DNA from: Gammaproteobacteria bacterium
GTDB taxonomy: Bacteria > Pseudomonadota > Gammaproteobacteria > Steroidobacterales > Steroidobacteraceae
Reading direction: 5' to 3'
Assembly (NCBI GenBank): GCA_012026925.1
Contig: VEPJ01000073.1
Location: 6,340-70,339, forward strand
DNA length: 64,000 nt
Shown here: positions 37,242-57,908 of the stretch, one piece after another
Position numbering within the stretch: the first letter of the stretch is position 1
Layout: the number at the start of each line of letters is the position of its first letter
Made by a program: the position numbers and the translations under genes
Notes under the pieces: generated by a model
Seen by the model: only the letters and a program-made list of their open reading frames with translations
The model's database searches: none
What the model was told of the DNA's origin: nothing

Positions 37242-39152
37242 TCAGCGGTCGAGCAGCGCGACGACGTTGTCGAAGCTGCGGGCGCGGGCGGCGTCGCTGG
37301 CGGCCACGCCATCCCGATTGCGCAGCTTGCGGCTGGCGCCCGCGTCGAGCAGCGCCTGCACGGTCTCCAGGTTGCCTGATTGGCTTGCAAGGATCAGCGC
37401 CGTGTCACCCAGGCGGTTCTGCCCATTCGCGTCGGCCCCTGCGGAGAGCAACCGGCGAACCGTACTGGCATGACCGCCCATCGCCGCAAGCGTGAGTGGC
37501 GTATCGCCGGAACGCGTCTTCGACGCAACGCTGGCGCCCCCGCGAACGAGCCGGTCCACCACAGCCGTGTGACCACGCGCGGCAGCGCAACCGAGCGGGG
37601 TCAAACCGTTCGAGTCCGCCGCGTCGATGGTCGCCCCCGCCTTGAGGAGCAGCGGAACGGTCGCCGCTGCGTCCGCGCAGGCGGCGTACCAGAGCGGCGT
37701 GCGTCCCGACGCGTCCGCCGCCGAGACCGTGGCCCGGGCGTCGATGAGCCGCGCTGCGATCTCGGCCTGGTCGCGCGCCGATGCGATTGAGAGCGCCGCT
37801 GCGCCAATCGAACTGTGCGCGTTCGGATCGGCGCCGGCCGCCAGCAGTAGCGACGCTGAACGAGCGTCACCGTTGTCGACAGCGATGAACAGGGGCGGTT
37901 CCGACGAGTTCGCGTGCGCGTTCGGATCCGCGCCGTGCTTGAGAAGAACCTCGAGCGCCGACGCGTGTCCGAGCTGCACGGCATACTGCAGAGCGGTCGC
38001 GCCCCGGGCATCGGTCTTCGCGACGCTGGCCCCTGCGCCTAGAAGCGCCGCAATCGACTGGCTCGAATCCGACGCGACGGCCACCATGAGGGCCGTCTGC
38101 CCGTCCGGCGCGGCCGCGTTCGGATCGCCGCCCTGGGCGAGCAGGTCGCGCAGGCGCGCCGGATCCTTCCGGGTTGCGGCGACTACCACGTCCGGCCAGC
38201 CCGCGTATGCGTCGGTCGCAGAACGAGGCAGCCGGTCCAGGGGTCCCGCAGCGCCCGTCGAAACCGGCGCCCGCACCGGCGCCGATCCCGCGGCGCGCAG
38301 ATCCTTCGACTGCTGTGCCCGACCGCTGCGGGCAGCGTACGCGAGCGCGGTGTTGCCACCACGATCCGTCGCCGTCACGCTCGCCTTCGCCTGCAGGAGT
38401 CGCGTGCAGGCATCGGGCGACTCGGCGGCGCACGCGAGCATCAATGGCGTCACGCCGTATCGATCCACCGCATCGACCTTCGCTCCGCGGGCAATCAGCA
38501 ACGCGACTGCCTCGTCCTCGCCGCCGTCGGCGGCGTGATGCAGGGCCGTGCGGCCGAAGTCGTCGGCGGAATTCACGCGCTCGGGCGTGGCAAGTGCCTC
38601 GAGCAGCGCCAGGTCACCGCGTCGCGCTGCCCTCCAGAATTCGGCCCGGCGCAACGATTCATCGGCCAGGCCGTCCTGCGGCCGGACTTCGAGAGGCAGG
38701 ACGCCCCGCTGGAGCAGGTCGCGCGCCGCCGGATCGCCGAGGGCCGCCGCTCTCTCGAGCCAGTGCCTGGCGCTGGCCGGATCACGTGGATCGCGCGTGG
38801 CGAACATGGCGGCCAGCGCGTAGGCCGCCCTCGCCTGCCCCTGGCCCGCGGCAGCCTCGAAAAGCTTCTGCGGCTGCCCCGGTTCGGACGCGGGCAAGAG
38901 ATCCGCGAGCAGCATCGAGCCCAGCAGGTACTTCGCCTCCGCGTCGTCACGCGCCGCCTGCTCGGACAGCAATCGCGCGGCGAGCTGGTAGTCCTTGACC
39001 CGGATCGCGGCCTTGGCGGGCTCGAGCGCGTCGGCCGAACGGGTCGGTTGCGCCGCCGGGGCGCTCGCACCGACCGCCCCCGCACACGAGCAGAGCAACA
39101 TCGTCACGAAGGTCGCAGCCGGCCGGACCGCGCGCCGCTCATGCCGTCCCAT
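37242..39152 (-). CDS. exported Sel1/TPR-like plus ankyrin-repeat protein
   Basis: Cys-containing signal region (FVTMLLCSCAGA). Sel1-like units (AEAKYLLGSM..., ARAAYALAAMF...), then about 11 ankyrin-type repeats (G.TALH.AA..G....V..LL..GA..). The start could be 39152 or 39101. Confidence 0.8.
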   Translation of the reverse strand: MGRHERRAVRPAATFVTMLLCSCAGAVGASAPAAQPTRSADALEPAKAAIRVKDYQLAARLLSEQAARDDAEAKYLLGSMLLADLLPASEPGQPQKLFEAAAGQGQARAAYALAAMFATRDPRDPASARHWLERAAALGDPAARDLLQRGVLPLEVRPQDGLADESLRRAEFWRAARRGDLALLEALATPERVNSADDFGRTALHHAADGGEDEAVALLIARGAKVDAVDRYGVTPLMLACAAESPDACTRLLQAKASVTATDRGGNTALAYAARSGRAQQSKDLRAAGSAPVRAPVSTGAAGPLDRLPRSATDAYAGWPDVVVAATRKDPARLRDLLAQGGDPNAAAPDGQTALMVAVASDSSQSIAALLGAGASVAKTDARGATALQYAVQLGHASALEVLLKHGADPNAHANSSEPPLFIAVDNGDARSASLLLAAGADPNAHSSIGAAALSIASARDQAEIAARLIDARATVSAADASGRTPLWYAACADAAATVPLLLKAGATIDAADSNGLTPLGCAAARGHTAVVDRLVRGGASVASKTRSGDTPLTLAAMGGHASTVRRLLSAGADANGQNRLGDTALILASQSGNLETVQALLDAGASRKLRNRDGVAASDAARARSFDNVVALLDR

Positions 39153-40446
39153 ACTTGGTCTCCACGTCGACGCCGATGCTGCGGAGGAAGTCCGCAGGGA
39201 GGATGCCGCCCGCACTGACGATGACCGCGTCGTTCGGGAGTTCGCGCTCCAACTCACCGCGGGCGACGAGCACGCTGTCCCGTTCGATGCGCTTCACTTC
39301 CGACCCGAACAGCACCTCGATGCGGCCGGACTGCATCGCGGCCATCGTGCGCTCGCGGTTGCGCGGCTTCGCCCGCGCGAAAGCCTCGCCACGATAGGAA
39401 AGCGTCACGGTCCGCGCGCCGGATTCAGCGATGCTGAGCGCCGCTTCGAGTGCGCTGTCGCCACCGCCCACGACGAGTACGTCCTGCCCGGCGTACTGCT
39501 CGGGATCAATGAGGCGGTAGACGACCTTGGGGAGTTCCTCGCCCGCCACACCGAGCTTGCGGGGCGTGCCGCGCCGGCCGATGGCGAGCAGCACGCTCGA
39601 CGTCCGGTACTCGGCCTTCGTCGTGCGTACCACGAAGCCGCTGCCCTGTCGCTGGATCGCCTCGACCCGTTCCCGGTAGCGGATCTGCAGTCCGGCCTTG
39701 CTCTCGATGTCCTGCCAGAAACCGAGCAGCGCCTCCTTCGAGGTCTGGCCGAAACGCATCTTGCCTGCGAGCGGCAGCGTGACGGGCGAAGTCATGACCA
39801 GCTTGGCGCGCGGGTACTGGAAGACGCTGCCACCGAGGGATTCCTGCTCGATCGTGGCGAACTTCATGCCGTGCGCCATCGCGGTCAGCGAGGCCGCGAG
39901 TCCCGCCGGACCCGCGCCGACGATCACGAGATCGAGTGCGTCGCCGCCGCGCGACCGACGCCCGTGAATCGCATCCACCGCCTGCTTGCCCTGCGCGAGC
40001 GCGTTGCGGATGAGGCCCATGCCGCCGAGCTCGCCGGCGATGTAGATCCCCGGCACCGACGTCTCGAAGTCGGGGCTCAGCAGCGGGATGTCCACCCCGC
40101 GCTTCGCCGAGCCGAACACGAGCGAGATCGCGTCGGCCGGGCACGCGGTGCGGCACGCTCCGTGGCCGATGCAGTCGGACGGGCTCACGAGCTGCGCCTT
40201 GTTGCCTATGAGCCCGAGCACGTGGTGCTCCGGCTGCTCCGGGCAGGCCTTCACGCACGACCCGCAGCCGATGCACTTCAGCGCGTCGATCACGGGATGG
40301 AGCGACACCGGCTCGGCGAGGCCCGCCGCAACGGCCCGGTCCCGCACGGCGACGTGCGTGCGCTCGGCCCGCTGGCGTCGGCCGAGGTACCAACCCCAGA
40401 TGACGGCCAGCGGTGCGCCGTACACCAGCAGGAACGCGTAGCTCAT
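39139..40446 (-). CDS. membrane-anchored 2x[4Fe-4S] ferredoxin-domain / FAD-NAD(P)-binding oxidoreductase
   Basis: N-terminal TM (AFLLVYGAPLAVIWGWYL). CIGCGSCVKACP and CIGHGACRTACP cluster motifs. Two dinucleotide-binding motifs (VIVGAGPAGLAAS and VLVVGGGDSALEAA), giving a thioredoxin-reductase-like layout. Confidence 0.8.
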   Translation of the reverse strand: MSYAFLLVYGAPLAVIWGWYLGRRQRAERTHVAVRDRAVAAGLAEPVSLHPVIDALKCIGCGSCVKACPEQPEHHVLGLIGNKAQLVSPSDCIGHGACRTACPADAISLVFGSAKRGVDIPLLSPDFETSVPGIYIAGELGGMGLIRNALAQGKQAVDAIHGRRSRGGDALDLVIVGAGPAGLAASLTAMAHGMKFATIEQESLGGSVFQYPRAKLVMTSPVTLPLAGKMRFGQTSKEALLGFWQDIESKAGLQIRYRERVEAIQRQGSGFVVRTTKAEYRTSSVLLAIGRRGTPRKLGVAGEELPKVVYRLIDPEQYAGQDVLVVGGGDSALEAALSIAESGARTVTLSYRGEAFARAKPRNRERTMAAMQSGRIEVLFGSEVKRIERDSVLVARGELERELPNDAVIVSAGGILPADFLRSIGVDVETKYGTA

Positions 40447-40633: not shown

Positions 40634-41467
40634 ATGTCGACGGGTGCCATTGCGTCGAGCACGCGGAGCGGGTTCATACTCGGGCTGTCGGCCGGGGTCG
40701 TCCTCGCGTCGGCATTCTTCCTGCTCCGCGGCGAGTTGGCTGAACCCGCCCAGGCCGGCGCGAGCATCAGCGCCCAGACCGCGCCGACGACATCCGCCGG
40801 TTCGCACCCCATGGCGCCAGGCGGTGACAAGGCGGGCTCCATGGAAGCCGCGACCCTCGCCCTGAAGGCCCGTCTCGCTGCGAATGGCGGGCCCGACGAC
40901 CAGTGGGAACTGCTCGCGCAGTCCTACGACTTCCTCGGTCGCAGCGACGAAGCGAAGCTCGCCCGCCAGCACAAGGTCGCGGCGGGCAGTGATCTCCGCG
41001 ACACGATCGCGGTCAGCGCGATGATGCTGTCTGCAAGCCGCGGCACCGGCAGCGCAGCCTCGGCAGGTTCCGCGCCTGCGCCGTCGAACGACGCGGCTGC
41101 CCGGATCGCCAGCGCCGAACAGCATCGTCGCAACCGCGAGTTCAAGGAAGCGTGCGCCGACTATGCCGCCGTCGTGCGCCTGGGCGCCATGACCGCCGAC
41201 ACCTGGGCCGACTATGCCGACGCGCAGGCGTCCCTCGCCGGCCGTCTCGCCGGCGAGCCGGAGCAGGCCATTGCCAAGGCGCTCGCGCTCGACCCGCGGC
41301 ATACGAAGGCCCTGTGGCTGAAGGCGAGCCTCGCACACGAGCAGCACCGCTACACGGAAGCCCTCGCGACGTGGCGGCAACTGCTGGCGCTGGTGCCCGC
41401 GGGCTCCTCGGACGCCCGGATCGTCGAGGCGAACATCGCCGAAGCGACGCGGCTCGCGAAGAGCTGA
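40634..41467 (+). CDS. membrane-anchored TPR protein resembling the C-terminal (apocytochrome-binding) part of CcmI/CycH/NrfG
   Basis: One N-terminal TM (GFILGLSAGVVLASAFFLL). The segment LKARLAANGGPDDQWELLAQSYDFLGRSDEA and later TPR units (...DPRHTKALWLKASLAHEQHRYTEALATWRQLL). Confidence 0.55.
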   Translation: MSTGAIASSTRSGFILGLSAGVVLASAFFLLRGELAEPAQAGASISAQTAPTTSAGSHPMAPGGDKAGSMEAATLALKARLAANGGPDDQWELLAQSYDFLGRSDEAKLARQHKVAAGSDLRDTIAVSAMMLSASRGTGSAASAGSAPAPSNDAAARIASAEQHRRNREFKEACADYAAVVRLGAMTADTWADYADAQASLAGRLAGEPEQAIAKALALDPRHTKALWLKASLAHEQHRYTEALATWRQLLALVPAGSSDARIVEANIAEATRLAKS

Positions 41468-41476: not shown

Positions 41477-42457
41477 ATGTCGGCACGACTGCAGCGGCAG
41501 GAACTTCCTGCACTGGATGCGGCTGGCGCGGCCGCCGGTCCGGGCATCACGCCACGGCGTCCACGCCTCGAAGTCACTCGCACGTCGCCGCGCAACGTGG
41601 CGCAGAGGGCCCCCGTGGAGCCTCGGCGGCTGCGGCTCGACCCGACGTGGCTGTTCGTACTCGCGACGGTGGCCCTGCTCGCCTGGGGCTACCGATTTCC
41701 AACCGAGCGGTACATCACGCCGCAGACCGGCATCGGCTACGCGCTCGGGATCATCGGCGGCTCCTCGATGCTGCTGCTGCTCGTCTATCCGTTGCGCAAG
41801 CGCGTGCGCGCACTTTCGTTCATCGGCACGACCAGGCGCTGGTTCCAGGCGCACATGGTGCTCGGCATCGTCGGCCCGGTCCTCGTGCTATTCCACTCGA
41901 ATTTCAGCCTCGGCGCGACGAACAGCAACGTCGCGCTCGCCTGCATGCTCGTCGTGTCGGGCAGCGGCCTCTTCGGCCGTTACTTCTACGCGCGCATCCA
42001 CCACGGGCTGCACGGTCGTCGCGCGAGCCTGGCGGAACTGCAGGACTATGCCGAGAAGCTCCGCTGGGTGACGACCAACGTCGAGTTCCTGCCGGACCTC
42101 GTCGCGCGGATCGAAGCCGAGGAGCGCGGCATCGTCCGTCGCAGCGAGCGCCTGCCCCTGCTTGCCCGGCCGCCGGTCTGCGCCCTCGGCACCATGCTCG
42201 CGCGGCGCCGCCTGCGCCGATACGTGGTCCAGTCGCTGCAGGGCGCCGCCGGCGGGAGCGACGACCGGGGCCGCCGGTCGAGCCTGGTCGAAACGGCCGC
42301 CCGCTACATCGACGACCGGCTGTCCGCCACCCGCCGGGTGATCGAGTTCGCGGCGTTCGAGCGCCTGTTCTCGCTCTGGCACGCGCTGCACCTGCCGTTG
42401 TTCCTGATGCTGCTGATCGCCGGCGTCGTGCACGTCGTCGCGGTCCACGTGTACTGA
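41477..42457 (+). CDS. polytopic membrane protein with two H-x13-H pairs (ferric-reductase-domain-like dihaem b candidate)
   Basis: Starts 9 nt after the TPR gene. About 5 TM segments. QAH-MVLGIVGPVLVLF-H and ALH-LPLFLMLLIAGVV-H each have exactly 13 residues between the His, both within hydrophobic helices. Confidence 0.55.
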   Translation: MSARLQRQELPALDAAGAAAGPGITPRRPRLEVTRTSPRNVAQRAPVEPRRLRLDPTWLFVLATVALLAWGYRFPTERYITPQTGIGYALGIIGGSSMLLLLVYPLRKRVRALSFIGTTRRWFQAHMVLGIVGPVLVLFHSNFSLGATNSNVALACMLVVSGSGLFGRYFYARIHHGLHGRRASLAELQDYAEKLRWVTTNVEFLPDLVARIEAEERGIVRRSERLPLLARPPVCALGTMLARRRLRRYVVQSLQGAAGGSDDRGRRSSLVETAARYIDDRLSATRRVIEFAAFERLFSLWHALHLPLFLMLLIAGVVHVVAVHVY

Positions 42458-42474: not shown

Positions 42475-44037
42475 ATGCGACATGTGCGCCCTGTCCTCGG
42501 CCTGGTGGTCCTGATGCTGGCGAGCGCATCACCCCGATCCGCGCCGGCCGCCGGCCTCGAGACCCTCATCATGCCGGGCAAGGTCACGAGCGCGCACGCC
42601 AAGGTCGAGCAGGACTGCTCGCAGTGTCACGATCGCGCGGATCGCAGCCGGCAGGCGGCGCTCTGCATGAACTGCCACAAGGACGTCGCCGCGGATGTGC
42701 GCGCGCATGCCGGCTTCCACGGGCGCCTGCCGTCCATCGACACGGCGCAGTGCAAGGCATGTCATTCCGAGCACCTCGGGCGCGATGCGGACATCGTCAA
42801 GCTGAGCACGCCCGGGTTCGATCACTCGAAGACCGACTTCGCCCTCTCGGGCGCGCACTCGTCGGCCGACTGCGCCGCCTGCCACAAGCCCGGCCGCAAG
42901 TACCGCGAGGCACCGTCGGGCTGTTCCGACTGCCACCGTTCCGACGACCCGCACGGCGGGAAGCTCGGTGCGAACTGCGGCACGTGCCACGAACCGTCGG
43001 CATGGAATCGCGTTCGCTTCGATCACGACAAGACGCGCTTCGTCCTGCGCGACGCGCACCGGGACGTCTCCTGCACCGCATGCCACCCCGGCAACCAATA
43101 CGCCGGCACGCCATCGGCCTGCGCCTCGTGCCATGCGCCGGATGACGTGCACCGCGGCACGCGCGGCCAGGACTGTGCGAGCTGTCATACGACCGTCGCG
43201 TGGAAGACCTCGAAATTCGACCACGCGAAGGAAGCGCACTTCCCGCTGGCCGGCGCGCACGCGCAGCTCGACTGCAAGGGCTGCCATACGACCGCGAGCC
43301 TGAAGGATCCCCTGCCGAAGGACTGCATCGGCTGCCACCGCCCGGACGACGCTCACGCGACACGCTTCGGCACCGCCTGCGAGAAGTGCCACGGGACCTC
43401 GGCCTGGAAGCCGTCGACGTTCAGCCACACACGCGACGGCCGGTTCGAGCTCGTCGGCGGTCACGCGAAACTCGGCTGCACGGCGTGCCACACCGCGGTC
43501 GTGGCGCAGCAGAAGCTCGGCACGGACTGCGCCTCGTGCCATCGCACGACCGACGCTCATGCCGGCAAACTCGGCACGGATTGCGCCCGCTGCCACGGCG
43601 TCGAGTCCTGGCGTGCGGGCGTCACGTTCGATCACGACCTCGCGTCCTACCCGCTGGTCGGGCTCCACGTCGCGGTCCCCTGCCACGCATGCCACGCGAC
43701 GCCGGCGTTCAAGGGCGCTGCGCGCGACTGCAACGGCTGCCACCAGCGCGACGACCGGCACCAGGGCGCGCTCGGCAAGGACTGCGAAGCCTGTCATTCG
43801 CCGAACGGCTGGGCGCTCTGGCAGTTCGACCACGGCAAGGTGACGAAATTCGAGCTCACAGGCGCGCACGCGAGTGTCGCGTGCTCGGGCTGCCACAAGG
43901 AGCCTCCCGAGAAGGCGAAGCTCGACGGCGACTGCGCGTCGTGCCACTCGCGGGATGACGTGCATCTCGGCCAGTTCGGCCGCCAGTGCCAGCGCTGCCA
44001 CGGGACGTCCACGTTCAAGGGCGCGCGCCTGCAATAG
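42475..44037 (+). CDS. periplasmic multihaem c-type cytochrome with 21 CxxCH motifs (seven c7/c3-like trihaem modules)
   Basis: ATG at 42475, signal peptide MRHVRPVLGLVVLMLASA. I counted 21 CxxCH motifs in 520 aa. They are arranged as a repeated ~66-70-aa unit of the form FDH...F.L.GAH....C..CH ... C..CH..DD.H.G..G..C..CH. Confidence 0.9.
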   Translation: MRHVRPVLGLVVLMLASASPRSAPAAGLETLIMPGKVTSAHAKVEQDCSQCHDRADRSRQAALCMNCHKDVAADVRAHAGFHGRLPSIDTAQCKACHSEHLGRDADIVKLSTPGFDHSKTDFALSGAHSSADCAACHKPGRKYREAPSGCSDCHRSDDPHGGKLGANCGTCHEPSAWNRVRFDHDKTRFVLRDAHRDVSCTACHPGNQYAGTPSACASCHAPDDVHRGTRGQDCASCHTTVAWKTSKFDHAKEAHFPLAGAHAQLDCKGCHTTASLKDPLPKDCIGCHRPDDAHATRFGTACEKCHGTSAWKPSTFSHTRDGRFELVGGHAKLGCTACHTAVVAQQKLGTDCASCHRTTDAHAGKLGTDCARCHGVESWRAGVTFDHDLASYPLVGLHVAVPCHACHATPAFKGAARDCNGCHQRDDRHQGALGKDCEACHSPNGWALWQFDHGKVTKFELTGAHASVACSGCHKEPPEKAKLDGDCASCHSRDDVHLGQFGRQCQRCHGTSTFKGARLQ

Positions 44038-44048: not shown

Positions 44049-47000
44049 ATGAGCAAGCTCCAACGGCTCGTCGTTCTATGCCTGCTGGCGATTGCGGGGC
44101 ACGGCGCTCTTGCACAAGGTGCAGGATCCAGCTTCGATCACGTCACGACCGGCTACGAGCTCACCGGGGCGCACCGTCTGCAGGCCTGCGAGTCGTGCCA
44201 CGTCGACGCCGTGTTCCAGGGCACGCCGCGTGCGTGCGCGGCCTGCCATTCGCAGGGTTCGCGCATCGGGGCCACGCCGAAGAACTCCGGCCACATCCGC
44301 AGCACCGAGCAGTGCGACGCGTGCCACACCACCTCGGCGTGGTCCCCGGCGACGCGCTTCGACCACGAGCAGACCCAGGGCACGTGCTCGTCCTGCCACA
44401 ACAACGCGCAGGTCTCCGGCAAGCCGGCCGGCCACATCGCGACGACCATGGAGTGCAGCGCGTGCCACGGCACCGCGGCCTGGAGCCCGTCGAAGTTCGA
44501 CCACGGCAGCGTTTCGGGCGATTGCGCCTCGTGCCACACGCCGGGCGGCACCGCCACGGCCAAGGGTCCTTCGCACCTGCAGACCAGCAACGCGTGCGAT
44601 GCCTGCCACACCGTCGGCGCCTGGGCGCCCACGGCGCGCGTCGACCACACGCAGGTGAGCGGCGCCTGCGCCTCGTGCCACGACGGCACGCATGCGAAGG
44701 GCAGGAGCACGACGCACATTCCGAGCGCGGACGGTTGCGAGTCGTGCCACTCGACCTCGGCCTGGCGCCCGGCGCGCTTCGACCACGCGGGCGTCACGGA
44801 GCGTTGCGTCACCTGTCACGACGGGACCAAGGCGACCGGCGTCGGCGCGAAGCACATCAAGGCCACGACGTCCTGCGACGCGTGCCACGCGACCGTCGCG
44901 TGGAAACCGGTGACCCGCGTGGACCACGCCAATGTGCTCGGCAGCTGCTCGTCCTGCCACAACGGCACGCTCGCCACCGGCCAGAGCGCAAACCACATCG
45001 TGACCCGCGCCGAGTGCGACAGCTGTCACTCGAGCACGGCCTGGAAGCCGGCGAAGTTCGATCACTCGGGGTACGTGAACAATTGCGCGAGCTGCCACGA
45101 CGGCACGCGCGCCAAGGGGAAGAACCCGACCCACCTGCGGACGACCGAATCGTGCGAGTCCTGCCACGTCATCGCCGGCTGGAAGCCTGTCTCCGCGGTC
45201 GATCACACGCAGGTGCTCGGGACCTGCTCTTCCTGCCACGACGGCACTGCTGCGACTGGCAAGTCCGCGAACCACATCCCCACCGACGGCGCGTGCAGCA
45301 ACTGCCACACCACGAATGCCTGGAAGCCCGCCAAGTTCAGCCACGACGGCGTGACGGCGACCTGCATCACCTGCCATGACGGCACTCGCGCGACCGGGAA
45401 GAGCACGACCCACATCCAGTCGAGCAACGGCTGCCAGGCCTGTCATTCGACGTTCAGCTGGCGCCCGGTCACGCGCGTCGACCATGCGCAGGTCACCGGC
45501 AGCTGCTATTCCTGCCACAACGGGACCACGGCGAGCGGCAAGCACTCCGCGCACCTGACGACCAGCAACGACTGCGCCGCGTGTCACGCGACCCAGGCGT
45601 GGAAGCCTGCCACGCGCGTCGATCACGCCAGCGTGCTCGGCACCTGCGGCAGCTGCCACGACGGGAAGATCGCCACCGGCAAGACGGCGAACCACATCGT
45701 GACCCGCGCCGAGTGCGGGGACTGCCACGCGACGTCGGCCTGGAAGCCGGCGCGGTTCGACCACTCCTCGATCACCGAGGCCTGCTCCGTGTGCCACGAC
45801 GGCGTCAAGGCCACGGGCAAGACCACGAGCCACATACCGACGACGGCCGAGTGCGGAACGTGCCACGCGACTGCGGCGTGGAAGCCAGCGCGGTTCTCGC
45901 ATGACGGCATCACCGCCGCCTGCATCACTTGCCACGACGGCGTCAAGCAGACGGGCAAGAGCACCACCCACATCCAGTCGACCGACGGCTGCCAGGCCTG
46001 TCACTCGACGACCGGCTGGCGCCCGGTCGTGAAGGTGGATCACGCGCAGGTGTCGGGCAGCTGCTACTCCTGCCACAACGGCACCTCTGCAACGGGCAAG
46101 AACGCGTCGCACATCCAGTCCACGAACAACTGCGCGGCTTGCCACGCGACGACGGCGTGGAAGCCCGCGACCTCGGTGGATCACGGCGAAGTGACCGGCA
46201 GCTGTTTCTCCTGTCACAACGGGACCTCAGCCAAAGGCAAGCCCGTCAATCACATCGTGAGCAGCGACGACTGCGCCGCCTGCCACACGCCGTCGGCCTG
46301 GAAGCCGGCGAAGTGGGACCACACGGGCATCGTGGACAAGTGCTCCAGCTGCCACGACGGCGTGAAGGCGACGGGCAAGACGGCGACACATCTTGCGACG
46401 ACCGCGACCTGCGAAGCGTGCCACTCGGTCTCGGGCTGGAGGCCCGCGACCCGCGTCGACCACGCGCAGGTGATCGGTACTTGCAGCTCCTGCCACGACG
46501 GCGCGAAGGCGCCCGGCAAGGGCCCGAACCACATCCCGACGACGTCGGAGTGCGGCAGCTGCCACACGACGCTTGCATGGAAGCCGGCGAACTTCACCCA
46601 CGCCGGCATCACGTCGGGGTGTGCCACCTGCCACGACGGCATCAAGGCGACCGGCAAGTCGGCCACGCACCTCTTCACGAGCGCTGCGTGCGAGGCCTGC
46701 CACTCGACGAGCGCGTGGAAACCCGCGACCCGCGTGGATCACGCGCAGGTGCTCGGCACCTGCTCGAGCTGCCACAACGGCGCGAAGGCCACCGGGAAGC
46801 CCGTCAATCACATCGTCACCAACGCCGAGTGCGGCAGCTGCCACGGCACGACCGCATGGAAACCCGCGACCGGCTTCGACCACTCGGGCGTCACGGGCAA
46901 CTGCTACAGCTGCCACGACGGCGTCAAGGCCACGGGCAAGGGTGCGACACACATCACGACCGACACCAGCTGCGAGAGCTGCCACGCGACGAGCGCCTGG

Positions 47001-48311
47001 AAGCCGGCCCTGCGCGTCGATCACGGCCACGTCTCCGGCACCTGTTCGACCTGCCACAACGGCACGACGGCCACGGGCAAGGGGACGAACCACATTCCGA
47101 CCACCCAGGAGTGCGGCAGCTGCCACTCGACGCTGGCATGGGTGCCTGCGAATTTCACGCACACGGGCATCACCTCGAACTGCTCGAGCTGCCACGACGG
47201 CGTGAAGGCCACGGGCAAGAATGCTGCCCACATCTTCACGACGGCCGTCTGCGAAGCGTGCCATGCAACCTCGGCGTGGAAGCCGGCGACCCGCGTGGAT
47301 CACGCGCAGGTGCTCGGCACGTGCTCGAGCTGCCACAACGGCTCGAAGGCGACCGGCAAGCCCACGAACCACATCACTACGTCGGCCGAGTGCGGCAACT
47401 GTCACTCGACCACCGCGTGGAAGCCGGCCACGGGCTTCACGCACGACGGCATCACCGGCAACTGCTACAGCTGCCACAACGGCGTGAACGCCGGCGGCAA
47501 GAGCGCCACGCACCTGCAGACGAGCAACCTCTGCGAGTCGTGCCACTCGCCCGCCGGCTGGAAGCCCGCCGTGCGCGTGGACCACAGCCAGGTGATCGGC
47601 AGCTGCTACTCGTGCCACAACGGCACGAACGCCACCGGCAAGAACGCCACGCACATCACGAGCGACACGAGCTGCGACGCCTGCCACACGACGACGGCCT
47701 GGAAGCCGGCGGCGCGCGTCGACCACAACCACGTCACGGGCACGTGCTCGAGCTGCCACAACGGCGTGCAGGCGCCGGGCAAGCCCACCAACCACATTCC
47801 AACGACGCAGGAATGCGGCGTCTGCCATTCGACCCTCGCCTGGCTGCCGGCCGCCTTCGACCACACCGGCGTGACGAGCGGGTGCAGGAACTGCCACAAC
47901 GGCACGACCGCGAGCGGTCCGTCCACCGGCCACATGACGTTCCCGGTCAACAACTTCGACTGCAACAAGTGCCACACGACGACGGCCTGGTCGCCCAACA
48001 CGTTCAGGCACCTCGCCGGCGGCGGCTACCCCGGCGACCATCGCGTCGCGCTGACGTGCACGAGCTGCCACACGACCAACACCGATGCCGCCACCTGGCG
48101 CGCTCCCGCCTACAAGCCGGACTGCGCGGGCTGCCACGCGAGCCGTTTCAAGCCCGACCCGCACAAGAAGTACGGCGACGTGAAGTACACGGTGAGCGAG
48201 CTGCGCAACTGCTCCGGCGCATGCCACATCTACACCGACTCGACGCTGACGACGATCGCCACGCGTCGCTCGGGCCCGCAGCACCGCATCACCGACACGG
48301 AATTCCACTGA
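44049..48311 (+). CDS. giant secreted multihaem c-type cytochrome with 58 CxxCH motifs
   Basis: ATG at 44049, 11 nt after the 21-haem gene. Signal peptide MSKLQRLVVLCLLAIAGHGALA. I counted 58 CxxCH motifs in 1420 aa, mostly in ~47-aa dihaem units of the form AWKPA.RVDH..V.G.C.SCH.G..A.GK...HI.T...C..CH. Confidence 0.9.
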   Translation: MSKLQRLVVLCLLAIAGHGALAQGAGSSFDHVTTGYELTGAHRLQACESCHVDAVFQGTPRACAACHSQGSRIGATPKNSGHIRSTEQCDACHTTSAWSPATRFDHEQTQGTCSSCHNNAQVSGKPAGHIATTMECSACHGTAAWSPSKFDHGSVSGDCASCHTPGGTATAKGPSHLQTSNACDACHTVGAWAPTARVDHTQVSGACASCHDGTHAKGRSTTHIPSADGCESCHSTSAWRPARFDHAGVTERCVTCHDGTKATGVGAKHIKATTSCDACHATVAWKPVTRVDHANVLGSCSSCHNGTLATGQSANHIVTRAECDSCHSSTAWKPAKFDHSGYVNNCASCHDGTRAKGKNPTHLRTTESCESCHVIAGWKPVSAVDHTQVLGTCSSCHDGTAATGKSANHIPTDGACSNCHTTNAWKPAKFSHDGVTATCITCHDGTRATGKSTTHIQSSNGCQACHSTFSWRPVTRVDHAQVTGSCYSCHNGTTASGKHSAHLTTSNDCAACHATQAWKPATRVDHASVLGTCGSCHDGKIATGKTANHIVTRAECGDCHATSAWKPARFDHSSITEACSVCHDGVKATGKTTSHIPTTAECGTCHATAAWKPARFSHDGITAACITCHDGVKQTGKSTTHIQSTDGCQACHSTTGWRPVVKVDHAQVSGSCYSCHNGTSATGKNASHIQSTNNCAACHATTAWKPATSVDHGEVTGSCFSCHNGTSAKGKPVNHIVSSDDCAACHTPSAWKPAKWDHTGIVDKCSSCHDGVKATGKTATHLATTATCEACHSVSGWRPATRVDHAQVIGTCSSCHDGAKAPGKGPNHIPTTSECGSCHTTLAWKPANFTHAGITSGCATCHDGIKATGKSATHLFTSAACEACHSTSAWKPATRVDHAQVLGTCSSCHNGAKATGKPVNHIVTNAECGSCHGTTAWKPATGFDHSGVTGNCYSCHDGVKATGKGATHITTDTSCESCHATSAWKPALRVDHGHVSGTCSTCHNGTTATGKGTNHIPTTQECGSCHSTLAWVPANFTHTGITSNCSSCHDGVKATGKNAAHIFTTAVCEACHATSAWKPATRVDHAQVLGTCSSCHNGSKATGKPTNHITTSAECGNCHSTTAWKPATGFTHDGITGNCYSCHNGVNAGGKSATHLQTSNLCESCHSPAGWKPAVRVDHSQVIGSCYSCHNGTNATGKNATHITSDTSCDACHTTTAWKPAARVDHNHVTGTCSSCHNGVQAPGKPTNHIPTTQECGVCHSTLAWLPAAFDHTGVTSGCRNCHNGTTASGPSTGHMTFPVNNFDCNKCHTTTAWSPNTFRHLAGGGYPGDHRVALTCTSCHTTNTDAATWRAPAYKPDCAGCHASRFKPDPHKKYGDVKYTVSELRNCSGACHIYTDSTLTTIATRRSGPQHRITDTEFH
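44150..47900 (+). repeat. in-frame tandem coding repeats (~141-nt dihaem units with a higher-order 561-nt block)
   Basis: The periodic ...TGCCAC... pattern and the recurring GCCTGGAAGCC/GTCGACCAC strings are visible throughout. An identical 33-mer lies at 46727-46759 and 47288-47320. Confidence 0.85.
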
Positions 48312-50695
48312 TGCGGCCCGGCACCCAAAGGCTCGCATCGCTCGCACTGCTTGCGCTGCTCGCGGATCCGGCGGCCGCGCAGGTCGCCGGGCGGCTGGTC
48401 GACGAGGTCAGCGTCGGCGAGCAGGATGGCTACGCGACGGTCACCTTCGTGTTCGGCTGCAACGTGCAGTACGTGAGCCACGTACCGGCCAGCAGCGGTG
48501 ACACGGTGCGAGTACGGCTCGTGCCGGGACCGGACTGCGGGTCGCCCGCAGCGGGCTGGATCGTGCCACCGCCGCTCGACCCCCGCGGCGTGATCCGCGC
48601 GGTGGACGTCGACCGCACCATGGGCCGCAACGTGGACCTCGCGATTCGCTGGTCGAAGTCGGAGCAGTTCGTGCTGGTTCCATCGACGAACCGGCGGGGC
48701 CTGCGAATCCTGCTCGTGCGGCCCGAGGCGGACCGCTCCAGCGTGAGCGTGAAGGAGGTGACCGGCAGCGTCTCGGTCTATGCCGTCAATCTCGACGCTT
48801 CGCAGCAGCCGTACGACGCGGCCTCCATCGCAGCGGCGCAGCAGGTGACCGGAGTAAGTGCCTACGTCTCGGAGACCACCGTCGACGGGCAGAAGTGGTA
48901 CCGGTTGCGCGCCGGTCCGTTCGTCGCCGAGTCCGATGCGCGCAAGGTCCTGGTCGCTGCGCGCACCCGCTACCCGAAGGCATGGCTCGCGGTGTCCGAC
49001 GACCCGAAGATGAGCAAGACCGGGCTGCCGGATGCGGTCGGCAGCGTGCAGACGGTCGCGACTCCCGGCAATGCGACGCTGACCCAGCAGGACATCGACC
49101 AGACGTTGAAGCGCGCGCAGGAGATGATGCGGCGCAAGGACTACGTCGTCGCGATCCAGCTGCTCACGCGCCTGACGGAGCAGCCCGAATTCCCGCAGCG
49201 CGCCGAGGCCCAGGAACTGCTGGGACTGGCCCGCGAGCGCAACGGCCAGCTCGCCCACGCGAAGGCCGAGTACGAGGAGTATCTCCGGCGCTATCCGGAT
49301 GGCGACGCGGCCGACCGCGTGTCGAAGCGATTGCGTGCGATCACGTTCGCGGCGAGCCCAGCCAGCGCCCAGGCGCGGACGGCTGCTGCGGACGAGTCGA
49401 AGTGGAAGGTCTACGGTGGCATATCCCAGACCTATCGCCGGGACTCGAGCACGTTCGACAACGGTACGGTGTCGAGGAATTCGACCACGCAGGACGCGAT
49501 CCTGAACGACGTGGCGCTGGCCGCGCGTCGCAGCGGCGAGCGCTACGACGTCGCGGTGCGGGTGAGCGGTGCGTACGGCATCGACATGATGTCGGACGGC
49601 CCCGGCAACCAGGGCACGCTGACGCTGCTGTTCGCGGAGCTCCGCGACCGCGTGCTCGACTGGACGGTGCGCGGCGGTCGCCAGTCGGGCAGCCTCGGCG
49701 GATTGATCGGTACATTCGACGGCCTGTATGGCGGCTACCAGGTCGCGCCGAAGTTGCGCCTCAACGCGTACCTCGGCTACCCCGTCAATTCCGCGCGCTC
49801 GGCGCCCTCCTCGGACCAGACGTTCTACGCTTTGTCCGCCGACATCGGCACGTTCGCCGAGGCCTGGGATCTCTCGCTGTACGCGATCGACCAGACCTAC
49901 ACCGGGTACACGGACCGCCAGGCGATCGGCACGGAGCTGCGCTACTTCCGGCCGGGCCTGACGTTCGTCGGTCTCGCCGACTACGACATCCACTTCGGCG
50001 ACCTGAACGACGTACTGCTGCTCGGCACGGCAGCGCTCCCCGCCCGCTGGACGATGAGCGTGAATTACGACCATCGCAAGAGCCCGGGACTGAGCCTGCG
50101 CAATGCACTGATCGGGCAGCCCGTGCGCACGTTCGACCAGCTGTTCGACCTCTTCTCTGCGTCGCAGATCCAGCAGCTGGCACAGGACCGGACGGCGGCG
50201 TCAGACACCTACACCTTGTCGCTGTCGAGGCCGTTCGGCGAGCGCTGGCAGTGGTCACTGGACCTCTCGGGCATGAGCATCAGCGGGACGCCGGCGTCGG
50301 GCGGCGTCGAGGCGACGGCGCCTTCCGGCACGGACTACATCGTCTCGTCACAGGCGCTCGGCTACGGGCTCTTCGGGCGCGGCGACGTGTCCTCGCTCGG
50401 CTTGCAGTACCAGACCGGAGAGGCGACCGATACGATCTCGCTCGGCCTCTACACGCAGCTGCCGGTCGGGCAGATGTGGCGCCTGAGCCCGCGGATCCGG
50501 TTCGACCAGCGCCAGTTCCACACCGACGGATCGACTCAGCTGCTCTACGCGCCCGGGCTGCGCGCCGAGATGCGCTGGCAGAGGTTCTGGCTCGAACTCG
50601 AGGGCGGCGCCGAGATCGGTCAGCGTTCGCTCGGCGACTCGAGCGCCGACACCACCCGCTATTACTTCAGTCTTGGATACCGCTATGACCTCTGA
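48311..50695 (+). CDS. outer-membrane protein with signal peptide, SPOR-like domain, TPR-like segment and C-terminal beta-barrel
   Basis: ATG at 48311 overlaps the cytochrome TGA (TGATG). Signal peptide LALLALLADPAAA. SPOR-like YAVNL...DGQKWYRLRAGPFVAESDARKVL. TPR-like KDYVVAIQLL...AEYEEYLRRYPDG. Then ~430 aa of alternating amphipathic strands ending YYFSLGYRYDL. Confidence 0.7.
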   Translation: MRPGTQRLASLALLALLADPAAAQVAGRLVDEVSVGEQDGYATVTFVFGCNVQYVSHVPASSGDTVRVRLVPGPDCGSPAAGWIVPPPLDPRGVIRAVDVDRTMGRNVDLAIRWSKSEQFVLVPSTNRRGLRILLVRPEADRSSVSVKEVTGSVSVYAVNLDASQQPYDAASIAAAQQVTGVSAYVSETTVDGQKWYRLRAGPFVAESDARKVLVAARTRYPKAWLAVSDDPKMSKTGLPDAVGSVQTVATPGNATLTQQDIDQTLKRAQEMMRRKDYVVAIQLLTRLTEQPEFPQRAEAQELLGLARERNGQLAHAKAEYEEYLRRYPDGDAADRVSKRLRAITFAASPASAQARTAAADESKWKVYGGISQTYRRDSSTFDNGTVSRNSTTQDAILNDVALAARRSGERYDVAVRVSGAYGIDMMSDGPGNQGTLTLLFAELRDRVLDWTVRGGRQSGSLGGLIGTFDGLYGGYQVAPKLRLNAYLGYPVNSARSAPSSDQTFYALSADIGTFAEAWDLSLYAIDQTYTGYTDRQAIGTELRYFRPGLTFVGLADYDIHFGDLNDVLLLGTAALPARWTMSVNYDHRKSPGLSLRNALIGQPVRTFDQLFDLFSASQIQQLAQDRTAASDTYTLSLSRPFGERWQWSLDLSGMSISGTPASGGVEATAPSGTDYIVSSQALGYGLFGRGDVSSLGLQYQTGEATDTISLGLYTQLPVGQMWRLSPRIRFDQRQFHTDGSTQLLYAPGLRAEMRWQRFWLELEGGAEIGQRSLGDSSADTTRYYFSLGYRYDL

Positions 50696-51269
50696 CACGA
50701 GTCGTTTGCAACGACGCTTGCGTCCAGTCGTCGCGCTCGCCATCGCGCTCGCCGCCGCGTCGTGTGCTTCGGGACCAGGCCAGGACGTCGCCAGTCGCAC
50801 GGGGGCGGCGGCCGATGCCCGCGCCACCGTCGCTTACGGCACACTCGTCTTCGCCCGCGAGCGGCCGGAACTGGCAGCCCACGCCCGCGATTACCTGACA
50901 CTCGTGCCGGTCGCCGTCGGGCCCGCCGGATCGCAGTCGCTGTACTTCTACGGCTACGTCTGGTCGACCATCGACAAGCGCGGGCTGCGCGCCTCGGACG
51001 ACGCAGCCGGCCAGTTCGAGTTGATCGCCGATGATCGGAGGATTCCGCTCGCTCCGGTCCAGGCCACGCCCGATGAACTGGGATTGGCCGTGCCGCCCGT
51101 GCGCGCGCCTTCGGGCTCCGCCCGGCTACTGATCGCCGCGACCAGCCGCGAGACGCTCGAGTTCCTTGCTGCAGCGGGCAAGGTCCGCGCCGTCCGTGTG
51201 GACGGCGATAAGGCAGAGCGTTACGAGCTCTGGTCGGGCAACCCCGACTCGCTCCTCGCGATGCGATAG
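50685..51269 (+). CDS. lipoprotein of unknown function (last gene of the multihaem operon)
   Basis: ATG at 50685 overlaps the barrel gene by 11 nt. Lipobox-like ALAAASC. No motif recognised. Confidence 0.5.
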   Translation: MTSDTSRLQRRLRPVVALAIALAAASCASGPGQDVASRTGAAADARATVAYGTLVFARERPELAAHARDYLTLVPVAVGPAGSQSLYFYGYVWSTIDKRGLRASDDAAGQFELIADDRRIPLAPVQATPDELGLAVPPVRAPSGSARLLIAATSRETLEFLAAAGKVRAVRVDGDKAERYELWSGNPDSLLAMR

Positions 51270-53405: not shown

Positions 53406-54590
53406 CTAATTCGGGCGGGCCGGATCCACGGGCCCGCTCGACGCCGGCGAGGGCTTCTCGGCCAGGATCGCGGACGAGACCCAGCCCGTGTGCTCGGCAC
53501 CGCCTGCGACGCGGAACCGGATGAGCGACGAGGACTGCTGCATCCGGAGCACCTGGACCAGGTCCCCCTTGGCCACTGTCCCCACGACGGCACCGTCCGA
53601 GTACACGACCGAGTCGGCGACGACGACCCTCACGGCGTCGTTGCCGGGTGCCGCGAGCAACCGCTCGTTCGCGAGCCCCAGGTTCTTCTGGGCCTCCTCG
53701 AAATAACGTGGCGACTCGGTGATCGCCGACTGGAAATATCGCTTGGCGGAGTCGAAGTCGCCGCGTTCCATCGCCGCTTCGCCGAGGAGGTTGTACGCGT
53801 GCGCCAGGTCGGTGTCCCGGGTCAGCGTCTCCAGCGCCTCGGCGTAGCGGCCCTGCACGGCCTGCACCTTCCCCAGGTTCCGCCAGACGTTTCCCTTCGC
53901 ACCGAGGCGAATGGCCGCCTTGAGATCGGCCTCGGCACCGGGCAGGTCGCCCGCCAGGTAGCGCGAAAAGCCACGGTTGTTCATCACCATGGCCGCGCCG
54001 GGCTCGATCGCGAGGGCCTTGTCGTAGTCGCTGATGGCCGCCGTGAAATCGCCGCGGCGATCCGCGAGTATCCCGAGGCCGTTCCAGGATTTCCAGCGCT
54101 TCGGATCCAGCGCGATGGCCCTTTCGAACAGCGGGGGTGCCTCGGCGTCCCGGCCGGACTGGATATACAGCAGGCCCAGCCGCTCGCAGACCCCGGGGTT
54201 GTCCGGCTGCCGCTCGAGCGCAAGTTCGTAGGCCTTCTCCGCGAGCTGCACGTTGCCTTTCTGCTCGTGGATCGCGCCGATCTTCACGAACGGCTCGGAC
54301 CGCGTGGAGTCGAACGACAGCGACTCGACGTAGAGATACACGGCGAGATCGAGCTTGCCCGCCTGGTAGGCGGCGTCACCGCGCTTGATGCCGTCGTCCG
54401 CGGACGTTACCGGGTACTGCGTGGAATGGACGATCGACGGCTCGCCGGAGTAGAGCTGGCTCGCGGCCTGCTTGTCGATGGCGCGCGCCATCTCGGCGCC
54501 CTGCTTCGCGGCTTTGTCGGAATGCGTCGAGGCGCAACCCGCCATTGCCGCAATCAGCAGCCACGCCACGAGACCCGTCCGCGACCTCAC
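53406..54590 (-). CDS. tadD: TadD-like TPR lipoprotein with C-terminal SH3-like domain
   Basis: Lipobox LIAAMAGC and multiple TPR units. The C-terminal ~70 aa (VVYSDGAVVGTVAKGDLVQVL...GWVSSAIL) looks like a bacterial SH3 domain. Last gene of the tad operon. Confidence 0.65.
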   Translation of the reverse strand: MRSRTGLVAWLLIAAMAGCASTHSDKAAKQGAEMARAIDKQAASQLYSGEPSIVHSTQYPVTSADDGIKRGDAAYQAGKLDLAVYLYVESLSFDSTRSEPFVKIGAIHEQKGNVQLAEKAYELALERQPDNPGVCERLGLLYIQSGRDAEAPPLFERAIALDPKRWKSWNGLGILADRRGDFTAAISDYDKALAIEPGAAMVMNNRGFSRYLAGDLPGAEADLKAAIRLGAKGNVWRNLGKVQAVQGRYAEALETLTRDTDLAHAYNLLGEAAMERGDFDSAKRYFQSAITESPRYFEEAQKNLGLANERLLAAPGNDAVRVVVADSVVYSDGAVVGTVAKGDLVQVLRMQQSSSLIRFRVAGGAEHTGWVSSAILAEKPSPASSGPVDPARPN

Positions 54591-55561
54591 GGCCCTGCCT
54601 TCTCACCCAGGATCCTGAACACCTCCGCAAAGCGTATCACCGCTGGCCCGACCGCGACGACGAAGAACGCCGGGAACATGCATATGACCAGCGGGAAGAC
54701 CAGCTTGGTGCCGATCTTCGCAGCCTGCTCTTCGGCCCGCTGCATCCGCTTGTCGCGGAACTCCTCGGCGTATACGCGCAGCGTGTCGGCGATGCTCGTG
54801 CCGAAACGGAGGGTCTGCAGCAGCAGGCTCACCAGGCCGTGGATGTCCTCGAGCCCGGTCCGGGCCGCCAACCCCTTGAGGGCCATTTCGCGGTCGACGC
54901 CGGCCCGCATTTCGGCCGTCACGAGCCCCAGCTCGGTGGCCAGCTCGGGGTGACTGAAGCGGAGCTCCTCGGAGACACGCTGAATCGAGGCGGTCAGGCC
55001 GAGGCCTGCCTCGACGCAGACCACCAGCATGTCGAGCGCATCCGGGAAGCCGTCCCGCAGCCGCTTCTGGCGCCGTTCCACCAGGTGGCCCAGCACGACG
55101 TTCGGCAACTCCAGCCCGACGAAAGCCGCGGCCATCGCGAGGAACAGGAGAGTCGCCATGCCGACGCGCGGCATCCACACCGACGAGGCGACGACGGCAC
55201 ATCCGAAAAGCACCGCCAGCGCGGTCTTGATCGTGTAGAAAAGCGGCAGCGCATTCTGCGAACGGAAGCCTGCGACCGACAGGCGCTTCTCCATGTGGCT
55301 GCGCTCGTGCTCCCGCAGCGGCAGCAGGTACTTGTTGACGGGCTCGAGCGCGTGCAGCAGCTGCGCGACCGTCTTGTGCTCGGGCTCGACCTCGGTAGCC
55401 AGGTGGCCGAGCCGCCTGCGCACCGGGTCCGTTACGGCGATGACGAGCAGCGAAACTCCCAGCGTCAGCAGGAAGACGGCCGCGGCCGCAGCCACGACGA
55501 TCAGAACCCGATGCGTTTCCGTCCCGCTCAGCAAGTCAGAGATCCGGGTAATGGTATCCAT
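54587..55561 (-). CDS. tadC: Flp pilus assembly membrane protein TadC (T2SS-F family)
   Basis: ATG at 55561. T2SSF-type polytopic protein. 4-nt overlap with tadD. Confidence 0.8.
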   Translation of the reverse strand: MDTITRISDLLSGTETHRVLIVVAAAAAVFLLTLGVSLLVIAVTDPVRRRLGHLATEVEPEHKTVAQLLHALEPVNKYLLPLREHERSHMEKRLSVAGFRSQNALPLFYTIKTALAVLFGCAVVASSVWMPRVGMATLLFLAMAAAFVGLELPNVVLGHLVERRQKRLRDGFPDALDMLVVCVEAGLGLTASIQRVSEELRFSHPELATELGLVTAEMRAGVDREMALKGLAARTGLEDIHGLVSLLLQTLRFGTSIADTLRVYAEEFRDKRMQRAEEQAAKIGTKLVFPLVICMFPAFFVVAVGPAVIRFAEVFRILGEKAGP

Positions 55562-55565
55562 GGCG

Positions 55566-56540
55566 TCACAGCTCGATTCGGATGATCTTGCGCATCCAGA
55601 GAACGCCCACAACCATCATGATGCAGGCGGTCACGATCAGCCTCCGGCCCAACGGGTCGTGCAGCAGCGGCGGCAGGTATTCCGGCGTGATGACCCAGAT
55701 CACGCCGAACAGCGTGATGGGCACCAGGGCGAGGATCCAGGCCGACAGTCGCCCTTCGGCCGACAGCGTGCGCACCCTGCGCCCGAACCTGAACCGGGCG
55801 CGGATGACCTGCGAGATGCGGTCGAAGATCTCGGCCAGATTGCCGCCCGACTCCTTCTGGATCAGGACGGCGGTCACGACCGCCATCAGGTTGGAGCTCG
55901 GTACCCTTGCCAGCATGCCGAGCAGCGCCTGCCTGAGGTCGTTGCCGTAATTGACGTCCGCGAAGGTGAGCTCGAACTCGCGTGCGATCGGCGGCTCCAT
56001 GTCGTCGGCCACGAGCTTCAGGCAGGAGTTGAAGGGATGTCCCGCACGCAGCGCGCGCTTCATGATGTCCACGGCGTCCGGCAGCTGCTCCTCGAACCTG
56101 GCGAGGCGGAGCTGCCGGTCCCGATGGATGATGACGAACGGGGCGGCCAACGCCATGACCGCGGCCAGGGACGCAACCATCCAGTTCGGGTAGAAAGCCA
56201 GCACCAGCACGAAGGCCACCACGCCGCACGAGACCGCGAGCATTACCATGCGGTGAGCGAGGACCGTGCGACCCGATTGCTCGATGAACCGCGCCAGCTG
56301 CTCCATGAACGGCAGGCTCTCGAGGCGACGCTCCAGCGGCGAGAGGTCCTGCAGGTACTTCTGCCGCAGCAGCAGGGACACCTCGCTATGCGCCTCGAAT
56401 GCGCCTATCTGGTGCAACTTGCGCCGCAGCAGCCTCTGCATGCGCGCGTCCGTCCCGAATGCCGGCACGAAGAGCGCCTGGGACAGCAGGAACACGGCTC
56501 CGGCGAGCAGCCCCAGGAATACCAGGAGTCCGCTTGTCAT
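55566..56540 (-). CDS. tadB: Flp pilus assembly membrane protein TadB (T2SS-F family)
   Basis: 324-aa T2SSF-type membrane protein immediately downstream of the ATPase gene. Confidence 0.8.
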
Positions 56541-56549
56541 GCGCTTCTC

Positions 56550-57905: not shown

Positions 57906-57908
57906 GGA

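Follow-up and report, generated by a model that had tools for sequence, protein, structure and literature searches.

What kind of outer-membrane protein is coded directly behind a cytochrome with 58 haem-binding sites, and how might it hold such a wire in the cell envelope? The question is raised by a window of 64,000 nucleotides (the whole stretch of DNA that was analysed) from contig VEPJ01000073.1 of a Gammaproteobacteria bacterium of the family Steroidobacteraceae. An original prediction, made from the letters of the window, had described the protein as a beta-barrel fused to SPOR-like and TPR-like periplasmic parts and had proposed that it holds a haem wire in a way different from known conduits. 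Our analysis indicates that it is probably the outer-membrane subunit of a conduit of the PCC3 type, a porin-cytochrome cluster defined by comparative genomics (He et al. 2017, PMC5566968), in which the barrel would provide the passage, the TPR arm a dock, and the SPOR domain a means of positioning the complex at the cell wall.

The cluster was assigned to PCC3 by gene order and by the hallmarks of its inner-membrane protein (IMP) and cytochromes, not by porin sequence. According to the available text of He et al. (PMC5566968), the PCC3 IMP has about 300 residues and five transmembrane helices, with an SGXXG motif on the fourth and WX3HX13H on the third and fifth; the periplasmic multihaem cytochrome (MHC) has a median of 21 haems; and the second MHC is very large, repetitive, rich in T, S, A and G, and low in its ratio of amino acids to haems. 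The IMP of the window contains WFQAH...H at 122, SGLFG at 163 and WHALH...H at 301 (two WX3HX13H motifs and one SGXXG), presumably binds two b-haems, and has, judged by eye from its hydropathy, four clear hydrophobic segments and a weaker first one. The smaller cytochrome has 24.8 residues per haem. The giant one has 24.5, with a composition of 13.7% T, 12.1% A, 9.6% S and 9.2% G, and a DmsE-family decahaem model matches it in 10 stretches (233 bits); the 58 sites counted in it agree with the original prediction, and its true start is at 44049. The genes for the IMP, 21-haem MHC, giant MHC and barrel protein are adjacent and all on the forward strand, in the order of Slit_1446-1449 of Sideroxydans lithotrophicus ES-1. 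Because gene order, IMP motifs, haem count and giant-MHC composition all match, we identify this co-oriented four-gene cluster as PCC3.

Synteny was followed in 82 related loci from genomes and metagenomes, in which the barrel proteins are 37-97% identical to that of the window. The full arrangement is found again in all loci with sufficiently long contigs, and where the contig extends far enough to show it, the gene directly upstream of the barrel always codes for a multihaem cytochrome. This cytochrome is hypervariable in length: across the 65 loci with a complete open reading frame (ORF) it has 2-70 CXXCH sites, with a median of 41, the very low counts probably reflecting broken ORFs. In several loci from long-read metagenome-assembled genomes (MAGs; L003, L004, L011 and L044), the cytochrome ORF looks broken although the spacing between its neighbours is preserved; errors of assembly or frameshifts within the repeats are the probable cause. 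The IMP is conserved in 59/82 loci and a homologue of the 21-haem cytochrome in 72/82, although some of these matches are weak (24-34%) and come from short contigs. The Solemya pervernicosa gill symbiont, whose genome is complete, also codes for a homologous SPOR-TPR-barrel protein within a PCC3-like cluster (P0465, found with a relative, P0213), with independent E-values of 2e-124 for the barrel and 3e-26 for the TPR by family hidden Markov models (HMMs). This agrees with the occurrence of PCC3 in chemosynthetic symbionts, including those of tubeworms, in the text available from He et al. (PMC5566968).

The barrel gene has the codon signature of the true genes in this 68.8% GC window, with a GC content of 0.89 at third (GC3) and 0.50 at second (GC2) codon positions; the long ORFs on the opposite strand in this region are without it. 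Its ATG (48311-48313) shares one base, A48311, with the TGA of the cytochrome gene (48309-48311), confirming the predicted overlap, and the CTGATG junction is also present in most loci of the closer clade. We take this ATG as the true start because a signal peptide begins directly there, with what looks like a signal peptidase I cleavage site after residue 23 and no lipobox. An AlphaFold2 model of the full-length protein was built from a 51-sequence alignment (mean predicted local distance difference test score, pLDDT, 77.5), and a second, separate model of residues 27-362 was used for the Foldseek comparison of the N-terminal part with the PDB. Together with the sequence searches, these models place the signal peptide, SPOR domain, TPR-like segment and barrel of about 430 residues where they had been predicted, and add a beta-sandwich N-domain that the prediction had overlooked. 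The model has low-confidence linkers at residues 139-154 and 229-258.

The barrel is modelled with confidence, with strands spanning residues 365-793, pLDDT mostly 80-95 and a C-terminal strand YYFSLGYRYDL. DSSP assigns 23 strand segments to it, which we read as 22 strands: segments 741-746 and 749-756 are counted as one because each is too short to span the membrane and together they equal their 16-residue neighbours, and the number should be even because the chain must enter and exit on the periplasmic side. From general knowledge of such barrels, we estimate backbone dimensions of about 40-46 Å. For the PCC3 porin of Leptothrix cholodnii, 22 transmembrane regions are likewise predicted in the text available from He et al. 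2017 (PMC5566968). The insertion between strands 13 and 14 contains helices at 592-599, 608-614 and 617-626 (pLDDT 52-67); by strand parity it is predicted to be on the extracellular side, where it could form a lid or constriction loop.

Comparison of the full-length model with the PDB by Foldseek returned generic outer-membrane barrels (OprD/Occ, the FimD usher and FadL) with E-values down to 2e-10 and low template modelling (TM) scores, and no specific barrel family could be assigned from these matches. The MtrB_PioB family (PF11854) did not match in Pfam at E up to 1, and no MtrB structure appears among the PDB sequence matches at E up to 10 or among the 50 Foldseek matches listed. Sequence and profile searches of the PDB recovered only CpoB and DamX, with nothing for the barrel or the N-domain.

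For the SPOR domain, Pfam PF05036 matches residues 157-226 with 23.4 bits against a gathering score of 21 (E 7.7e-5), and it matches each of the 51 homologues in the alignment, which range down to 54% identity, with a best E-value of 2.5e-10. A profile search thus upholds the SPOR assignment of the original prediction. The motif W196-Y-R198-L-R-A-G-P is invariant across the 51 sequences. The model adopts the RNP-like beta-alpha-beta-beta-alpha-beta order of SPOR folds, with strands at 157-164, 184-191, 194-204 and 225-228 and helices at 170-180 and 207-217. Foldseek pairs it with the SPOR domains of RlpA (6i09 and 6i05, TM-scores of 0.72-0.74 to the target), CwlC (1x60) and DamX (2lfv), the last of which is also a match by sequence in the PDB sequence and profile searches.

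The TPR assignment is carried by structure. In the model of the N-terminal part, the six helices have pLDDT values of 82-94, and Foldseek matches them with probability 1.0 to the TPR domains of YbgF/CpoB (2xev) and BamD (3qky and 5efr); CpoB (6g5s) is also a relative by PDB sequence search (E 7e-4, or 1e-4 with a profile). Five Pfam TPR models match the segment, including TPR_16, TPR_9, TPR_14 and YfiO, all below their gathering scores (TPR_16 is best with 22.3 bits against 32.7), as are the NCBIfam models for BamD (TIGR03302, 28.3 against 81.4) and YbgF (TIGR02795, 25 against 90.1). The predicted TPR-like fold therefore stands while the family cut-offs are missed, and since the scores lie below the curated cut-offs, we describe the arm from its sequence as TPR-like and not as a CpoB or BamD orthologue. 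Its last residue is four residues ahead of the first barrel strand.

The N-domain has invariant columns at C50, C76, Y54, H57 and P59 and is specific to this barrel family. In other loci a gene of its own, about 160 codons long and just upstream of the barrel gene, codes for it: an N-domain HMM finds the stand-alone proteins of L083 (9495-9980) and L085 (1903-2376) by hmmsearch with independent E-values of 1e-8 and 7e-8, and such secreted homologues (these two and L084, 728-1228) precede AMIN-TPR-barrel and LysM-TPR-barrel genes. This fusion and fission suggests a joint function of the N-domain with the barrel or the TPR arm. We considered AMIN (PF11741) as its identity and rejected it, as 0/51 members match and hhalign to an AMIN-bearing relative aligned the TPR part only. 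Foldseek of the N-terminal model against the PDB gave no convincing match to the N-domain.

Table 1. Coordinates of the features discussed, in window positions.
Feature	Coordinates	Strand	Length or residues	Basis or remark
Ankyrin-repeat protein with one Sel1 repeat	37242..39257	-		Ank_2 E 1e-73; downstream of the flavoprotein gene
Flavoprotein	39139..40446	-		N-terminal membrane helix, two [4Fe-4S] motifs, FAD/NAD(P) domain; divergent from the operon
CcmH/NrfG-like membrane-anchored TPR protein	40634..41467	+		TPR_CcmH_CycH E 5e-6; first operon gene
IMP	41477..42457	+	326 aa	PCC3 IMP motifs
21-haem cytochrome with signal peptide (PCC3 "periplasmic MHC")	42475..44037	+	520 aa	21 CXXCH
Giant repetitive cytochrome (PCC3 "extracellular MHC")	44049..48311	+	1420 aa	57 CXXCH and 1 CXXXCH
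Outer-membrane component ("porin") of the PCC3-type cluster	48311..50695	+	794 aa	No internal stops
Signal peptide (MRPGTQRLASLALLALLADPAAA / QVAG)	48311..48379	+	1-23	Translation; helix 4-16 in model
N-domain, beta-sandwich	48389..48730	+	27-140	Strands 30-136 in model
SPOR domain	48773..48994	+	155-228	Pfam PF05036, Foldseek
TPR-like arm, six helices	49085..49393	+	259-361	Sub-threshold HMMs, Foldseek
C-terminal beta-barrel	49403..50692	+	365-794	AlphaFold2/DSSP
Helical insertion between strands 13 and 14	50084..50194	+	592-628 (37 residues)	Model helices
Small downstream gene, ...LAAASC...	50685..51269	+	194 aa	Overlaps the barrel-gene end by 11 bases

The case for a contact with the cell wall is made most strongly by the wider family. 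More than 1330 homologues of about 790 residues were found, and a profile search of 1.84 billion representatives at 50% identity recovered 2268 members with E-values of 1e-3 or lower, 1114 of them at 1e-30 or lower. We scored the best 150 of the 2268 with HMMs of the four segments. TPR and barrel form a near-constant core, present together in 149/150, while the parts ahead of them vary: 68 are N-domain-SPOR-TPR-barrel proteins, 30 N-domain-TPR-barrel, 22 SPOR-TPR-barrel and 10 TPR-barrel, and 17 carry two to four tandem SPOR copies, so that the SPOR copy number ranges from 0 to 4. In some family members this N-terminal position is taken by a true AMIN domain (Pfam E 1e-12), in others by LysM. 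AMIN, SPOR and LysM are the three motifs reported to bind denuded septal peptidoglycan, and the AMIN domains of PilQ attach to peptidoglycan, anchor the pilus machine and bring it to the sites of future division (Carter et al., PMC5285504). Because exactly these three modules recur and swap, the N-terminus would be expected to contact the cell wall, and this interchange in relatives, read from sequence, lends support to the tether proposed in the original prediction. What did not stand is its suggestion of a new kind of conduit, for which its comparison had been limited to MtrB and OmbB, since PCC3 was described bioinformatically in 2017 (PMC5566968).

Public names for the homologues include "SPOR domain-containing", "tetratricopeptide repeat protein", "AMIN domain-containing", "BamD" and "sporulation related protein". 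Those of Thiogranum longum (P0436/P0506; WP_165869113.1, TCK18043.1) and P0520 are named BamD assembly factor or "sporulation related protein". The BamD and sporulation names derive from matches to TPR and SPOR and are misleading for a conduit barrel. The closest genome match to the barrel is a "Nevskiaceae bacterium" MAG (97% identity, L013), and relatives are mostly Steroidobacteraceae MAGs from soil, sediment and wastewater. The junction region is found with 95% of sampled words in one bioreactor metagenome run; the other sequencing-run matches are DNA metagenomes, apart from one doubtful RNA run with 10% of words. A tblastn search against plasmids gave no match.

Taken together, these parts suggest how the conduit may work. 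Electrons would pass between the di-haem-b-like IMP, the 21-haem cytochrome as a periplasmic wire and the 58-haem cytochrome as a wire reaching beyond the cell, and the barrel would be the insulated outer-membrane passage in which a haem wire, either the 21- or the 58-haem protein, is held. Directly under the barrel rim, the TPR arm would dock a cytochrome or the N-domain, or hold them during assembly. The low-confidence linkers on either side of the SPOR domain would allow it to reach the wall, where it may bind the glycan strands of peptidoglycan and so hold the conduit in a fixed position on the wall; a further effect may be to bring the conduit to places where denuded glycan arises (septum, future poles), as the AMIN domains of PilQ do for the pilus machine. 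Haems in MtrA-like wires are spaced about 0.8 nm apart, and we estimate lengths of about 17 nm for the 21-haem and 46 nm for the 58-haem wire. By these estimates the former could span much of the periplasm and the latter must exceed it.

Several points weigh against this assignment. The SPOR score of the window protein is just above its threshold, and two of four key residues differ from those we take to be Q251 and S254 of FtsN, which correspond to N160 and A163 here. No TPR match in Pfam reaches its gathering score. The count of 22 strands depends on treating one DSSP break as a bulge, the estimated barrel dimensions would be just compatible with a slim haem wire, and the helical loop at 592-628 could block the pore. 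The 58-haem protein lacks a lipobox and an evident export route, and its extracellular location is a prediction. The type PCC3 porins (Slit_0867 and Slit_1449 of ES-1 and that of Leptothrix cholodnii SP-6) lie outside the barrel comparison: none from Sideroxydans or Leptothrix was among the results of a genome-collection scan and two protein searches, which reached only gammaproteobacterial MAGs, T. longum and the Solemya symbiont. Finally, according to the accessible portion of one study (PMC8788666), both PCC3 clusters of S. lithotrophicus ES-1 are down-regulated on Fe(II), and electron transfer by PCC3 is so far undemonstrated.

A rival explanation is an export pore, in which the TPR arm would take hold of the mature giant cytochrome in the periplasm and the barrel would pass it to the surface in the manner of Slam, ushers or two-partner secretion, whether or not it remains associated with the cytochrome afterwards. 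The giant cytochrome has an ordinary signal peptide and no lipobox, TPR plus barrel is the plan of known outer-membrane translocons, the cluster contains no type II secretion genes, the barrel gene is tightly coupled in translation to that of the giant cytochrome, one relative has a weak TPR_Slam match, and FimD ushers are among the Foldseek matches. However, the resemblance to Slam and ushers is weak or generic (TM-scores of 0.23-0.30), and a holo-cytochrome with 58 covalent haems would be folded and bulky. In MtrCAB, the one solved conduit, the barrel is a permanent sheath. We consider an export pore unlikely, although it overlaps the conduit explanation rather than standing apart from it.

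We regard it as less probable still that the SPOR, TPR and N-domain part serves assembly only, in a BamD-like way, or is vestigial, with no binding to peptidoglycan in the finished complex. Members without SPOR exist (the 30 N-domain-TPR-barrel and 10 TPR-barrel proteins among the best 150), the SPOR score of the window protein is marginal, and the TPR arm resembles BamD, the name that NCBI gives to some homologues. Yet the W-Y-R-L-R-A-G-P motif is invariant in 51 sequences that extend down to 54% identity, and members with as many as four SPOR copies in tandem, or with AMIN or LysM in its place, suggest that peptidoglycan binding itself is under selection. A polymer exporter of the BcsC/PgaA/AlgK-AlgE kind that merely neighbours cytochrome genes would share the plan of a periplasmic TPR followed by a C-terminal outer-membrane barrel, but is rejected as highly improbable because no BcsC, PgaA or AlgE model or structure was matched by sequence (the original prediction had named BcsC/PgaA homology as a refutation; AlgE appears only at rank 44 in Foldseek, among generic barrels), because such barrels have 16-18 strands against about 22 here, and because the cluster contains no glycosyltransferase or synthase, its neighbours being cytochromes and redox proteins whose synteny is kept from 97% to 37% identity and also in the AMIN and LysM subfamilies.

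Within the conduit reading, a more far-reaching proposal can be made, which we hold only tentatively. PCC3 conduits might be positioned by wall chemistry, with SPOR, AMIN or LysM recognising septal denuded glycan, the wire being built around the peptidoglycan of future poles and staying locked there like the PilQ secretin, and the N-domain and TPR arm forming a periplasmic socket that joins both cytochromes beneath the 22-strand barrel. If true, PCC3 would be the first case of an electron conduit that carries its own cell-wall anchor and address label.

The genes around the four-gene core have a conserved composition of their own. The protein of the first operon gene also matches an NrfG model below its cut-off (E 4e-6) and is conserved in 60/82 loci. 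Nearly all giant cytochromes upstream of the barrel contain at least one CX3CH or CX4CH site, exactly one in most loci. NrfG-type proteins help to attach haem at atypical sites, and because the NrfG-like gene co-occurs with these sites, its product could be a dedicated maturation factor for the atypical haem site. Downstream, the 194-residue protein is conserved in 73/82 loci; it is a probable lipoprotein by its sequence, Pfam and model scans found no known domain in it, and it could act as an additional subunit or in the manner of a pilotin.

On the divergent side, the flavoprotein is conserved in 56/82 loci and occurs also beside AMIN-type and symbiont clusters. Together with the di-haem-b-like IMP, it resembles a split NOX/FRE-type module, which would feed electrons from cytoplasmic NAD(P)H to the haem wire, bypassing the quinone pool and implying outward flow. 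The ankyrin-repeat protein, apparently secreted and an unusual partner for a redox system, lies beside the cluster in 52/82 loci; its true start is probably near 39149.

Farther away, the reverse strand at 53406-63183 encodes a TPR protein, a T2SSF-domain protein, a T2SSE ATPase and a secretin with a pilus N-terminal domain, which we read as a Tad/Flp-type pilus locus; such a locus is not next to PCC3 in L001 and L002, two relatives with full gene lists. The window also contains a cyanophycin synthetase gene (23931-27020, reverse strand), a CHASE4 histidine kinase gene followed by one for a response-regulator/GGDEF/EAL protein (1132-4976, forward strand), and a 1076-residue ORF (31272-34502, forward strand) with good codon bias and no Pfam match. 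An Rfam scan of the window returned no match.

PCC3 clusters are widespread, as the 2268 representatives of the barrel family alone illustrate, and encode some of the largest known multihaem cytochromes, and to our knowledge no PCC3 component has been characterised yet. The four-part architecture hints at how a rigid wire that exceeds the periplasm in length could be threaded through the wall and anchored to it, and it exposes annotation errors such as "BamD" and "sporulation related protein". It also bears on published strand counts. He et al. (PMC5566968), in the text available, give 22 to 42 "transmembrane regions" per porin, with 40 in the Riftia symbiont; if made on full-length sequences, counts up to 42 are probably inflated by the 360 residues that are not barrel.

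Each part of the protein has relatives in better-known systems. Its SPOR domain is, by Pfam score and fold, that of the division proteins FtsN, DamX, DedD and RlpA, the last likewise attached to the outer membrane; here it is fused to an integral barrel within a cytochrome operon, and no role in division is implied. CpoB and BamD likewise have a short periplasmic TPR array beneath the outer membrane, and BcsC, PgaA and Slam have the same plan of TPR then barrel. In contrast to all of these, the barrel here is unrelated and larger, and the partners would be cytochromes instead of TolA, nascent outer-membrane proteins or polysaccharide. PilQ is similarly the outer-membrane channel of a trans-envelope machine with N-terminal peptidoglycan-binding modules, but it is a multimeric secretin whose channel is unrelated in sequence to the apparently monomeric beta-barrel described here.

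Among electron conduits, MtrB, MtoB and PioB are also barrels coded beside multihaem cytochromes and are thought to sheathe the haem wire, and the units of the giant cytochrome resemble DmsE/MtrA and domains II and IV of MtrC from MtrCAB-type conduits. MtrB has 26 strands, compared with the roughly 22 predicted here, and unlike the window protein it has no periplasmic SPOR/TPR extension. The closest comparison is with PCC3 itself, whose four core genes are reported in the same order (He et al. 2017, PMC5566968; Gallionellaceae survey, PMC10734462, each in its available text). To these the clade of the window adds the NrfG-like TPR gene, the lipoprotein gene and the divergent pair of FeS-flavoprotein and ankyrin genes. 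The accessible parts of the PCC3 papers on He et al.'s clusters, the Gallionellaceae and Sideroxydans treat the outer-membrane protein as a plain porin, and no paper pairing PCC3 with SPOR, or "SPOR domain" with "porin-cytochrome", was found in the searchable literature. Here, by contrast, the barrel is only the last 430 residues, preceded by 360 that hold the N-domain, SPOR domain and TPR arm, and it is this multi-domain, cell-wall-linked architecture of the outer-membrane subunit that is new and apparently undiscussed in print.

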